Virus record (IMG/VR): IMGVR_UViG_2703718871_000023
Strand: one strand, 5' to 3'
From: a virus
Lineage: Duplodnaviria > Heunggongvirae > Uroviricota > Caudoviricetes
DNA: 3,361 nucleotides
Shown: positions 305-3,361 of the stretch, piece by piece
How positions within the stretch are numbered: the first letter of the stretch is position 1
Layout: every line of letters starts with the position of its first letter
Notes under the pieces: model-generated
What the model saw: the letters and a program-made list of their open reading frames with translations, nothing else
What the model was told of the DNA's origin: nothing
Database searches by the model: none
Made by a program: the position numbers and the translations under genes

Positions 305-320
305 GGGGAACATATGACAC

Positions 321-350
321 ATAAAACAAAGGCGACCTGGGGCGGTCGCC
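321..350 (-). terminator. Rho-independent terminator for the minus-strand transcript (GC-rich hairpin followed by a U-tract on the minus strand)
   Basis: Plus strand reads GGCGACC (331-337), TGGGGC (338-343), GGTCGCC (344-350): a 7-bp stem with 6 GC pairs and a 6-nt loop. On the minus strand the hairpin is followed by TTTGTTTTAT (complement of 321-330). On the plus strand it is followed by AATGGGAAAACAC with no U-tract, so it looks unidirectional. It sits about 90 nt past the stop of the minus-strand gene 442-624. Confidence 0.6.
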
Positions 351-397
351 AATGGGAAAACACTAAACATAAGCCCGAACATCATAGCGATTTGCTG

Positions 398-437
398 GCT
401 GGTGGGCAATGTGCTCAGTGTGCTGGCTTGCTGGTGG
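398..437 (+). other. Two tandem Chi octamers (5'-GCTGGTGG-3') in non-coding DNA, embedded in an imperfect direct repeat
   Basis: Exact GCTGGTGG at 398-405 and 430-437, same orientation, 32 bp apart, inside the repeat GCTGGCTGGTGG (394-405) / GCTGGCTTGCTGGTGG (422-437). They lie between the stop of the minus gene (442) and its terminator. Whether they act as Chi sites depends on the host being E. coli-like. Confidence 0.5.
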
Positions 438-441
438 ACTA

Positions 442-624
442 TCAGCCTTTTGGTTCTATGCCTTCTTTGCGTAGCTTGTCACGACAGGCATTTTTAACCC
501 ATGAACTGAAATTACCAGGCCCAGCAACTTCGTTAATTTGTTGCAACAATGTGTCTTCGAAGCGGATGTTTTTCTTTGTGCTGCCAGAGCGATCAAATTT
601 TGGTTTCTCATTTTTTTCTTGCAT
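442..624 (-). CDS. Small basic YlcI/YnfO-like (DUF3950-like) protein, 60 aa; possible small DNA-binding regulator
   Basis: Translation MQEKNEKPKFDRSGSTKKNIRFEDTLLQQINEVAGPGNFSSWVKNACRDKLRKEGIEPKG is protein-like and matches the pattern I recall for prophage YlcI/YnfO proteins (basic N-terminus, KNIRF...I, then G.GNFS.WV..ACR..L). An in-frame TAA lies 5 codons upstream of the single ATG. It has its own terminator (321-350). The RBS is weak (GGTGG about 9 nt upstream). The overlapping plus-strand frame translates to low-complexity sequence. Family name is from memory. Confidence 0.65.
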   Translation of the reverse strand: MQEKNEKPKFDRSGSTKKNIRFEDTLLQQINEVAGPGNFSSWVKNACRDKLRKEGIEPKG

Positions 625-646
625 TGGTACGTACCACCGTTATAAA
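619..646 (+). promoter_or_regulatory. Candidate sigma70-type promoter for the rightward operon (-35 TTGCAT, 16-bp spacer, -10 TATAAA)
   Basis: TTGCAT at 619-624 and TATAAA at 641-646 with a 16-bp spacer that is filled by palindrome copy 1. The predicted start near 653 would put palindrome copy 2 just downstream. The -35 match is weak and this is a by-eye call only. Confidence 0.3.
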
Positions 647-670
647 CTGAAACCCAATGGTACGTACCAT
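625..670. promoter_or_regulatory. Pair of identical perfect palindromes TGGTACGTACCA; candidate operator sites between the divergent minus gene and the plus-strand operon
   Basis: TGGTACGTACCA at 625-636 and 658-669, each its own reverse complement. The second extends to a 14-bp perfect palindrome ATGGTACGTACCAT (657-670). Centres are 33 bp apart. Copy 1 abuts the start codon of the minus gene and lies in the spacer of a candidate rightward promoter. The motif is directly observed; the operator role is inference. Confidence 0.55.
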
Positions 671-769
671 ATTGAAGATACGCAACCATTAAATACAGCG
701 AAGCCCCGCAGTGGTGGAACACTCGCAGGGCTTCTAACCACCAACGATAGCAACAGTATCGAGGTAGCT

Positions 770-970
770 ATGAGAAATCATACCACACACCCGCAAGGGC
801 GGGACTTGCACAACCTGAATAAATTCACCTGGCGTTTTATCGCCCTGAGCACGGCACAACCGCGCGTGATTACCATTGAGGCCACCAGCGAACAGGAAGC
901 ACGCCAGCAATCCCCGGCTGGCTGCGTGATGCTATTCGCTGCCCGTATTCGCCAGGGGGTAGGCTTATGA
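770..970 (+). CDS. Small protein, 66 aa, first gene of the operon; possibly Icd-like host cell division inhibitor family (tentative)
   Basis: ATG 770 is preceded by GAGGT (761-765). The stop TGA 968-970 overlaps the next start ATG 967-969 (ATGA coupling). Translation MRNHTTHPQGRDLHNLNKFTWRFIALSTAQPRVITIEATSEQEARQQSPAGCVMLFAARIRQGVGL recalls Icd-like proteins of P4-like prophages (F.WRF.A ... E.EAR ... FAAR), from memory and unverified. The ORF track reports this frame open from 314, but the upstream part looks non-coding. Confidence 0.5.
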   Translation: MRNHTTHPQGRDLHNLNKFTWRFIALSTAQPRVITIEATSEQEARQQSPAGCVMLFAARIRQGVGL

Positions 971-1868: not shown

Positions 1869-2168
1869 ATGAAACTTAAATATTCTGGCTTAACTGCCAG
1901 TGGCAACACTCACCCTAAATTTACGCGCGGTGATATTTACCGCGACCAGTACGGCGGTACGGTAATGATTAAGGGCGTGGCGGGACGGTGCGTAACTTAC
2001 CGCCGTGAAGGTTACGAATATGATTGCGTGATGCCTGTTTATCAGTTCCGGCGTGATTTTTCTCTGGTACAGACCGCGCCGCATAACGTGCCCACCAGCA
2101 GGGAGAAAGCACGCGCCAATATTCAGAAGATGAAAAACATGATTAACGGATTCAGGGGCAAGAAATGA
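1869..2168 (+). CDS. Small protein, 99 aa, possibly DUF4222-like (tentative)
   Basis: ATG 1869 with GGAG (1855-1858) upstream. Its stop TGA 2166-2168 overlaps the ATPase start ATG 2165-2167. Translation MKLKYSGLTASGNTHPKFTRGDIYRDQYGGTVMIKGVAGRCVTYRREGYEYDCVMPVYQFRRDFSLVQTAPHNVPTSREKARANIQKMKNMINGFRGKK. The core (YRD...G.V.I.GV.GR.V.Y.R.GYE..CV.P...F) resembles what I recall of enterobacterial prophage DUF4222 proteins; unverified. Confidence 0.6.
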   Translation: MKLKYSGLTASGNTHPKFTRGDIYRDQYGGTVMIKGVAGRCVTYRREGYEYDCVMPVYQFRRDFSLVQTAPHNVPTSREKARANIQKMKNMINGFRGKK

Positions 2169-3361
2169 AAAGCGCACCGAACTTAAAAAAACAGCCTTAC
2201 GACAAGATGACCGAAGTCATCATTTTTGCGGGTAGTGATGCGTGGGCACATGCGAAACAGTGGCAGGAACAGGACGGGCGACTGGCTGGCGATAATGTGC
2301 CTCCCATTGTGCTGGCTGATGATCAACTGGATGAACTGGCAGACCTGAGAATCATCGACGAGGGGCGCTATTGTGTCCGGCTGTACAAGGCAGGCCACAT
2401 CAGGCCATCAAATATTAATGCCATTGCGCACAAGCTGGCGGCGGCGGGCGTAACTGATGCGAATTATTACCCCGAAGGGATACACAGCCAGAAGCGGGAG
2501 AACTGGCGCGAATATCTGGAACGGGAGCGGGGGAAAAAGCCAGGGGAAGAACACCACCAGCGAAAAACCACGCTACCGATGAGCGTTGGATCTGCCGGAT
2601 ACGACACGCAATTAGATTACGTGGTAAAGGGGATTATTCCGGCATCGTCGCTTTGCAGCATATACGGGGCGAGCGGTTCCTATAAATCATTCCTTGCGGG
2701 TTCGTGGGCGTGTCACGTTTCCACGGGCCGCCAGTGGGGAGGCCGCAGGGTGGCGCATGGCGCTGTTCTCTATGTGGTTGGTGAAGGCGGTATCGGCGTT
2801 CCGCGTCGTGTAAAAGCCTGGGAGGTTGTGCACGGTGAGCAGGTGAAAAATCTGTATCTGGTAAACCGTCCCATCTTTCCGGCGGTCCCGCTTGATGTTG
2901 ATGAAATGGTTATCGCTGCCCGTCAGGTGGAGCGGGAAACGGGTAAACCTGTACGCATGATTATTCTGGATACGCTGGCGCGTTGCTTTGGTGGGAATGA
3001 TGAAAATGATTCCCGTGATATGGGGGCGTTTATCCGTGGTTGTGACGAACTGAAACGACGCACAGGGGCCACGGTGCTGGTGGTTCACCATTCCGGCAAG
3101 GATGAGACGAAAGGCGCGCGCGGTTCCAGTGCATTTCGTGCATCACTGGATGCTGAATACCGGATACGCAGGGAGGACGCAGGAAGCGAAGCGCTGGTTA
3201 TCTCATGCACCAAAATGAAGGACGCGGAGGAACTCAAAGAGGCTGCCTATGATTTGCGGGTGGTGGAGCTTTTTACCGACGCTGACGGGGAGTTAATCAC
3301 GTCGCTGGTGGTGGTGGATAAGCCGCGCCCTCCCGTTGAACTGGAGCGCATCGAGGAGGCA
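2165..3361 (+). CDS. RecA-fold replication ATPase (AAA_25 / RepA-like helicase-type domain), probable satellite replication or primase-associated protein; 3' end truncated by the window (399 codons, no stop)
   Basis: The frame is open from ATG 2165 (AGGGG 6 nt upstream) to the last base of the window, which is why the stop-delimited ORF track does not list it. Motifs: P-loop-like IYGASGSYKSFLAG (2660-2700), Walker-B-like MIILDTLA (2957-2980), and VLVVHHSGKDETKGARGSSAFRASLDAEYRIRRE, which resembles the RepA/AAA_25 sensor region. The first ~160 aa are an unassigned N-terminal region. Confidence 0.85.
   Translation, partial: MKSAPNLKKQPYDKMTEVIIFAGSDAWAHAKQWQEQDGRLAGDNVPPIVLADDQLDELADLRIIDEGRYCVRLYKAGHIRPSNINAIAHKLAAAGVTDANYYPEGIHSQKRENWREYLERERGKKPGEEHHQRKTTLPMSVGSAGYDTQLDYVVKGIIPASSLCSIYGASGSYKSFLAGSWACHVSTGRQWGGRRVAHGAVLYVVGEGGIGVPRRVKAWEVVHGEQVKNLYLVNRPIFPAVPLDVDEMVIAARQVERETGKPVRMIILDTLARCFGGNDENDSRDMGAFIRGCDELKRRTGATVLVVHHSGKDETKGARGSSAFRASLDAEYRIRREDAGSEALVISCTKMKDAEELKEAAYDLRVVELFTDADGELITSLVVVDKPRPPVELERIEEA

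Follow-up and report, generated by a model that had tools for sequence, protein, structure and literature searches.

A phage-satellite replication helicase carries a tyrosine where the Walker A glycine that precedes the lysine is normally found, and this variant is conserved and widespread in a subfamily of phage and satellite helicases, with no sign of a dead enzyme. The gene lies at the end of a 3,361-nucleotide stretch of DNA from the virus record IMGVR_UViG_2703718871_000023 (the window) and is the 5' part of the replication protein gene of an E. coli phage-satellite island. Both the protein family and the island type are already known and annotated: RefSeq calls relatives 'helicase RepA family protein', and a match to phrog_2850 spans the full length of the ORF product. 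On the sequence evidence given below, we consider it reasonably probable that the protein would be active as a hexameric helicase of the RecA fold whose Walker A variant is specific to the subfamily and tolerated. The gene has the following features, with residues counted from its ATG.

2165 to 3361, + strand: helicase gene, 399 codons (1197 nt) open from the ATG at 2165 and leaving the window at its 3' end
2165 to 2530, + strand: N-terminal module of about 122 amino acids, residues 1-122
2600 to 3106, + strand: match to Pfam AAA_25 (PF13481), residues 146-314
2666 to 2689, + strand: Walker A motif or P-loop, G168-A-S-G-S-Y-K-S175, residues 168-175
2681 to 2683, + strand: TAT codon of Tyr173, just 5' of the Walker A lysine codon, at the usual Gly site
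2783 to 2785, + strand: Glu207 of motif 1a, the catalytic glutamate of RepA-type helicases according to PMC8965321
2957 to 2971, + strand: Walker B motif, M-I-I-L-D269, residues 265-269
3086 to 3103, + strand: motif 3, H308-H309-S-G-K-D, residues 308-313
3119 to 3130, + strand: R319-G-S-S, candidate arginine finger, residues 319-322

The initial annotation had read GASGSYKS, with Tyr before Lys, at 2660-2700, and the translation agrees, narrowing the motif to 2666-2689. It had also allowed that the motif was misaligned and that an HMM alignment might move the P-loop elsewhere, to a canonical GKS/T. Neither is the case. Pfam AAA_25 scores the ORF product at 149.1 bits against a cut-off of 27 (E 1.5e-43, profile positions 18-194 of 195), with residues 146-314 covered by the match. 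A phmmer search of PDB sequences aligns the RSF1010 RepA segment 'vspggagksmlal' to 'ygasgsyksflag' without gaps, setting the Gly of the RepA GKS over Tyr173. The AlphaFold2 model of residues 140-399, built from a diverse alignment (mean pLDDT 95.5, pTM 0.92), shows residues 163-168 as a strand, 169-173 as a loop and Lys174 as the first residue of a helix; Tyr173 is therefore the last residue of the loop, that is, the canonical pre-lysine position. Foldseek against the PDB with this domain model returns RepA 1g8y with the top TM-scores among the matches listed (0.67 and 0.72), along with RecA folds of the Rad51/RadA type. An earlier model of all 399 amino acids, computed from a shallow alignment of 42 close homologues, had a mean pLDDT of 64, with residues 148-171 below 50, and gave weak RadA matches alone in Foldseek; we replaced it with the domain-only model.

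Pfam, the RepA alignment, the fold model and Foldseek are thus concordant in placing Tyr173 in the genuine P-loop. We give next to no weight to the alternative that the motif is an artefact, whether through an error in sequencing, a frameshift or the assignment of the motif to the wrong place while the real P-loop lies somewhere else: the frame is open for 399 codons, a search for a second G....xK[ST] motif in this ORF found none, the motif recurs in all 120 of the closest protein clusters, and three independent alignments agree with the fold model on its position. As for class, the protein scores above the PF13481 gathering threshold and has the RecA-like core fold expected of RepA-like/AAA_25 helicases. 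Its Walker A departs from the canonical GxxxxGK[ST] at the second Gly, which is Tyr173 here; the first Gly, Lys and Ser are all kept. This deviation is no bar to membership of AAA_25, because other well-scoring members of the family share it.

A lineage-specific variant had been one of the readings put forward at the outset, and relatives uphold it. G[AP]SGSYKS is present in 120/120 of the closest protein clusters, at 59-100% identity and from six genera (Escherichia, Salmonella, Enterobacter, Klebsiella, Citrobacter and Yokenella), with the Tyr invariant; Tyr173 is therefore no chance or private substitution. Further afield, the ATPase domain gave 33,632 matches when scanned with HMMER against 1.84 billion representatives, and we aligned the best 150 (clusters at 50% identity) to the query. 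In this set of 151 sequences, two of which do not contain the region, the pre-lysine residue is Y in 48, F in 37, G in 51, L in 7, C in 3, A in 2 and R in 1, proportions that are not representative of AAA_25 overall, since these 150 are the sequences most similar to a query that is itself of the Y type. Tyr or Phe accounts for 85 of the 98 non-Gly cases in this sample of the best 150 of 33,632 plus the query. Nearly all of the nearest 75 or so representatives are of the Y/F type, and Gly takes the majority under about 43% identity.

Glycine and its replacements have changed places repeatedly. Parsimony on a simple neighbour-joining tree, with the pre-lysine column masked, counts at least 15 Gly/non-Gly changes and 42 changes among all states. 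Independently of any tree, discordant Gly/non-Gly pairs occur at up to 55-67% domain identity, for example GDPGTYKSF and GDPACGKSF at 61%. The codons of Cys (TGY) are a single nucleotide step from those of Gly (GGY), Tyr (TAY) and Phe (TTY), which makes Cys a plausible intermediate state.

Outside this one position the active site is unchanged. K174, E207, D269, H308, H309, R319 and K350 are each 100% conserved, whether in the 85 sequences of the Y/F class or in the 51 of the Gly class, and F176 is conserved in 99%; position 175 is Ser in 93% of the Y/F class and 82% of the Gly class, the rest being mostly Thr. The MIILD, HHSGKD and RGSS motifs, described as intact by the initial annotation, are indeed so (residues 265-269, 308-313 and 319-322), with D269, H308, H309 and R319 invariant. 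The query accordingly has the motif 1a Glu (E207), the Walker B Asp (D269), the motif 3 His (H308/H309, which align to RepA 'lhhask') and, at R319, the candidate arginine finger of the AAA_25 helicase class. That R319 would be the equivalent of RepA's arginine finger is suggested by its position, its conservation, the published motif set and the RepA sequence; the RepA alignment as obtained stops just short of the RepA arginine that we take to be its counterpart. The catalytic residues of the query match the set given in PMC8965321 for an experimentally active helicase of the RepA cluster, namely a Lys in Walker A, a Glu in motif 1a, an Asp in Walker B, a His in motif 3 and an arginine finger.

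The nucleotide sequence tells of constraint. Measured against a 96%-identical relative (L001), the overall dN/dS is 0.118, with 0.071 for the ATPase domain, and every one of the 14 nucleotide differences in 1197 nt that separate the gene from its counterpart in a second island (L002) is synonymous. The ATPase domain is under strong purifying selection.

The same variant is found in autonomous phages. A tblastn search with the ATPase domain against 50,697 phage records matched 1,339 of them, and we sampled 12, which carry the following Walker A motifs.

Jerseyvirus VT223, Jerseyvirus S120 and Kagunavirus Ro145c2YLVW: GESGTYKSF, Y before Lys
Vibrio phage 1218: GATGTFKTF, F before Lys
Mycobacteriophage Wanda: GRWGTSKSF, S before Lys
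Serratia phage Smarc2 (L007): GASGAKKTF, K before Lys
Murrayvirus IME_EC2 (L013): GESGAKKTF, K before Lys
Mycobacteriophages MelsMeow and Mortcellus and Gordonia phage Sour: GPPG(I/V)GKS, G before Lys
Dhillonvirus bob and phiEap-2: GESNIGKSF, G before Lys

The Glu, Asp and HH motifs are retained in 12/12 of these phages and the Arg in 11/12; in Vibrio phage 1218, 'GMEGSHA', without an Arg, aligns at the arginine-finger site. The record of VT223 has no annotated integrase, and no gene in it other than the Y-type gene, a 'replicative helicase-primase', bears a primase or replicative helicase annotation; one further gene is labelled just 'DNA helicase'. Going by annotation, the Jerseyvirus and Kagunavirus phages would depend on the Y-type protein. 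Like the query, the VT223 helicase-primase (WWE96475.1) has an ATPase domain of the AAA_25 type with GESGTYKSF and the Glu, Asp, HH and RGS motifs; unlike it (identity is about 28%), the phage protein is 728 aa long with a long N-terminal primase region, and the phage record annotates tail genes of its own.

As a separate observation, even charged residues are allowed at the pre-lysine position in phages that are apparently functional, Smarc2 and IME_EC2 both having Lys. The suggestion that the position is freely variable in active enzymes is thereby half borne out: it does vary (G, Y, F, L, C, A, R, S, K), in relatives that are known by sequence.

Glycine before the Walker A lysine is among the most conserved residues of P-loop NTPases and is built into most definitions of the motif, and substituting it can abolish nucleotide binding in other P-loop proteins. 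With GxxxxGK[ST] broken at a normally very conserved Gly, the protein could be a degenerate ATPase, serving as a non-catalytic origin-binding or scaffold protein while a host helicase such as DnaB unwinds the DNA. We find this highly improbable, as all other catalytic residues, including the trans-acting Arg, are invariant in the 85 Y/F representatives, which is unexpected for a pseudo-enzyme; a domain dN/dS of 0.07 is unlike that of a decaying or non-catalytic domain; and autonomous phages carry the same variant in the gene that is annotated as their replicative helicase-primase. Of the altered or absent ATPase activity proposed initially, absence is contradicted by the invariant catalytic set, the purifying selection and the autonomous phages, while the rate, the affinity or the specificity might be altered.

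Our preferred reading, an active helicase with a tolerated variant, can be put in mechanistic terms. The gene would encode a PICI-type satellite replication helicase in which the N-terminal module of about 122 amino acids is fused to a RepA-like ATPase domain of the superfamily 4 type. This domain would presumably form a ring with ATP at the subunit interfaces and unwind the DNA of the island origin after induction. Its Walker A loop would be a subfamily-specific G-x-S-G-S-[Y/F]-K-S-F in which the aromatic side chain is tolerated and catalytic competence is kept. The residue before the Walker A lysine contacts phosphate through its backbone NH only, which is why an aromatic side chain could be accommodated there. 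ATP hydrolysis, hexamer formation, DNA unwinding and a Tyr side chain facing away from the phosphates are what we would expect of such an enzyme.

One consideration runs against tolerance. The Gly before the Walker A lysine usually has a left-handed backbone conformation, and in the small GTPases the equivalent Gly to Ala replacements, Ras G15A and RhoA G17A, strongly reduce nucleotide affinity; a bulky residue could therefore be costly. Functional Walker A motifs with Ala or Ser before the lysine are, on the other side, found in the AAA+ ATPases of the MCM and MoxR types. A deviating Walker A can stay functional in Kti12 as well (K14L; PMC7363723). These cases differ from the query in having an AAA+ or kinase-like fold and either a small replacement residue or a replacement at a different position, and none of them has an aromatic residue before the lysine.

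Alternatively, the aromatic residue may be functional, the Tyr or Phe ring building a base or ribose pocket or a subunit interface together with Phe176 and tuning affinity, nucleotide preference or inter-subunit coupling. We regard this as possible but doubtful. It would fit the strict invariance of Tyr over 59-100% identity, the preference for Y/F among non-Gly cases (85/98), the 99% conservation of F176 one helical turn on, and three alignment columns that differ between the Y/F and Gly classes (381, L vs C/A; 336, R vs K; 159, P vs E). However, these class-specific columns may just reflect phylogeny, the neighbour-joining tree calls for 15 or more Gly/non-Gly switches at the site, with discordant pairs at 55-67% domain identity, and finding L, C, A, R, S and K there as well looks like tolerance with no fixed chemical role. 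The exchange of Tyr for Phe excludes a need for the hydroxyl group. A stronger form of the same idea, that an aromatic pre-lysine residue marks an unrecognised mechanistic subclass of phage and satellite ring helicases with a modified P-loop and the ring and Phe176 engaged in nucleotide binding or coupling, seems unlikely to us; if it were true, the repeated Gly-to-aromatic switching would speak of selection, for example for nucleotide preference or escape from an inhibitor, and not of neutrality. Between these possibilities we continue to favour a tolerated variant in an active enzyme.

The closest structural reference is RSF1010 RepA (PDB 1G8Y, 1NLF and 1OLO), the only solved relative of the query by sequence (profile E 1e-14 against PDB sequences). 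It shares the RecA-like fold (the TM-scores of 0.67 and 0.72 given above) and the order of Walker A, Glu, Walker B and HH, with an arginine finger presumably next. It differs in its canonical ...GAGKS, in its 17-21% identity to the query over the structural alignments, in being without the N-terminal module of about 122 amino acids, and in being plasmid-borne and loaded by RepC. A profile search of PDB sequences for a solved member of the Y/F type returned canonical RepA and Rad51 paralogues only, and the literature search likewise yielded no characterised protein of this type.

The GP46 helicase of Lactococcus phage F13 is a second point of reference. Like the query, it is a RecA-like protein of the RepA cluster with the Lys/Glu/Asp/His/Arg-finger set, and its ATP-dependent 5'-3' unwinding was shown experimentally (PMC8965321). 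Unlike the query it belongs to a distant, separate branch, and the accessible part of the paper reports no non-Gly pre-lysine residue. Neither PMC9599734 nor PMC2674469 says anything about the residue before the Walker A lysine, and searches of the accessible literature, including a full-text motif search, turned up no paper that describes RepA-like helicases with Tyr or Phe before the Walker A lysine.

The rest of the window places the gene in a satellite island, with the following features upstream of the helicase gene.

80 to 304, + strand: alpA
442 to 624, - strand: small DUF3950 ORF of 60 aa, at the position of the YlcI/YnfO gene in L001 and EcCICFT073
770 to 970, + strand: Icd-like gene (phrog_6196)
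967 to 1863, + strand: four small overlapping ORFs
1869 to 2168, + strand: DUF4222 gene, its stop codon overlapping the start codon of the helicase gene in ATGA

Gene order in the window is the same as in EcCICFT073 and EcCIEDL933. L001, the 96%-identical relative, carries this module in an island that adjoins pntAB, at tqsA, and has an integrase upstream; downstream of RepA come PerC, an HK97-type capsid protein, a protease, portal and head-closure proteins, an HNH protein, TerS and TerL, and tail genes are absent. This architecture is that of a capsid-forming PICI (bioRxiv 10.1101/2022.09.08.507074), and L002 is an island of the EcCICFT073 type. The layout of PICIs and cf-PICIs (int, alpA, then the Icd-like gene, small ORFs, DUF4222 and rep running rightward, followed by packaging and capsid genes without tail genes) is recognizable here, its downstream part through the relatives; the integrase and the packaging genes of the window's own island lie beyond the window edges. 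The neighbourhood is therefore that of a PICI or cf-PICI-type satellite and not of the P4-like elements that the initial annotation had pointed to. A P4-like satellite, which would carry a P4 alpha-type primase-helicase (D5_N or P4-family primase) and the P4-specific genes sid, psu and delta, was considered and rejected, the helicase domain being AAA_25 and not D5_N and the neighbours in L001 and L002 being PICI-type. The Pri-Rep proteins of PICIs differ from P4 alpha (PMC6092414).

Several smaller observations concern this upstream region. A 218-aa ORF at 314-970 (+ strand) is probably no single gene, as the match to the Icd-like phrog_6196 is confined to its final 66 codons (770-970). Stop/start overlaps chain the small ORFs to the helicase gene (967/970, 1190/1200, 1404/1411, 1630/1637 and 2165/2168), an arrangement that suggests a single translationally coupled operon from the Icd-like gene through rep. 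Two of the small ORFs, 1190-1411 (73 aa) and 1404-1637 (77 aa), are separated by a G8 tract at 1394-1401. With G7 at this place, L001 (9492-9938) has the two halves joined in a single 148-aa ORF that matches both halves of the 154-position profile phrog_2512; L002 shares the G8 of the window. The tract could be a slipped-strand switch between the split and fused forms, or a plain frameshift.

The N-terminus of the helicase links it to other islands. The first 122 or so amino acids are common to the query, the Pri-Rep of the PICI EcCICFT073 (WP_000761835.1; L017 20241-21995) and the rep product of the cf-PICI EcCIEDL933 (WP_000761781.1; L019 4038-6170), at 65-70% identity, and each of the three Pri-Rep alleles has the DUF4222 gene (81-86% identical) immediately upstream as its unvarying partner. 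The three proteins part ways in their helicase modules, which are unrelated (AAA_25 in the query; D5_N/DUF5906/Pox_D5, with a canonical GDGGSGKS, in EcCICFT073; DUF927 in EcCIEDL933). The shared N-terminal module has no Pfam family; it matches phrog_864 'DNA primase' and gives only weak Toprim-like fold matches. The shared N-terminus and the shared DUF4222 gene fit the '4 allelic variants' reported for Pri-Rep (PMC6092414). In EcCICFT073, rep-ori drives plasmid replication and deletion of pri-rep cuts transfer about 100-fold (PMC6092414), and EcCIEDL933 replicates upon induction (bioRxiv 10.1101/2022.09.08.507074). These data show the role of the module and have no bearing on the Tyr P-loop, because the helicase modules differ.

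The only database protein that is 100% identical to the 399 amino acids in the window is a singleton fusion of 563 aa (P0001, L002 10001-11692), which joins RepA without its last 20 or so amino acids (residues 1-446) to a head-decoration domain like that of lambda gpD (PF02924). The fusion probably arose by deletion in an island of the EcCICFT073 type, where capsid and head-decoration genes normally lie downstream. We considered P0001 as the window gene's own product and ruled it out: the DNA differs at 14 synonymous sites, and the upstream region is only about 91% identical or mosaic. Given these differences from L002, the window comes from another genome than P0001's.

The variant leaves the biology of the island largely as it was, since what it affects is the RepA-type allele of an interchangeable PICI replication module. 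It does matter for sequence annotation, as patterns built on GxxxxGK[ST] would miss such proteins or mis-flag them as inactive. For the helicase family, a large branch from phages and satellites has swapped the glycine mostly for Tyr or Phe, switching repeatedly while the rest of the active site stayed frozen, and the natural series of G, A, C, S, L, F, Y, K and R at one site offers a test of the backbone requirements of the P-loop.
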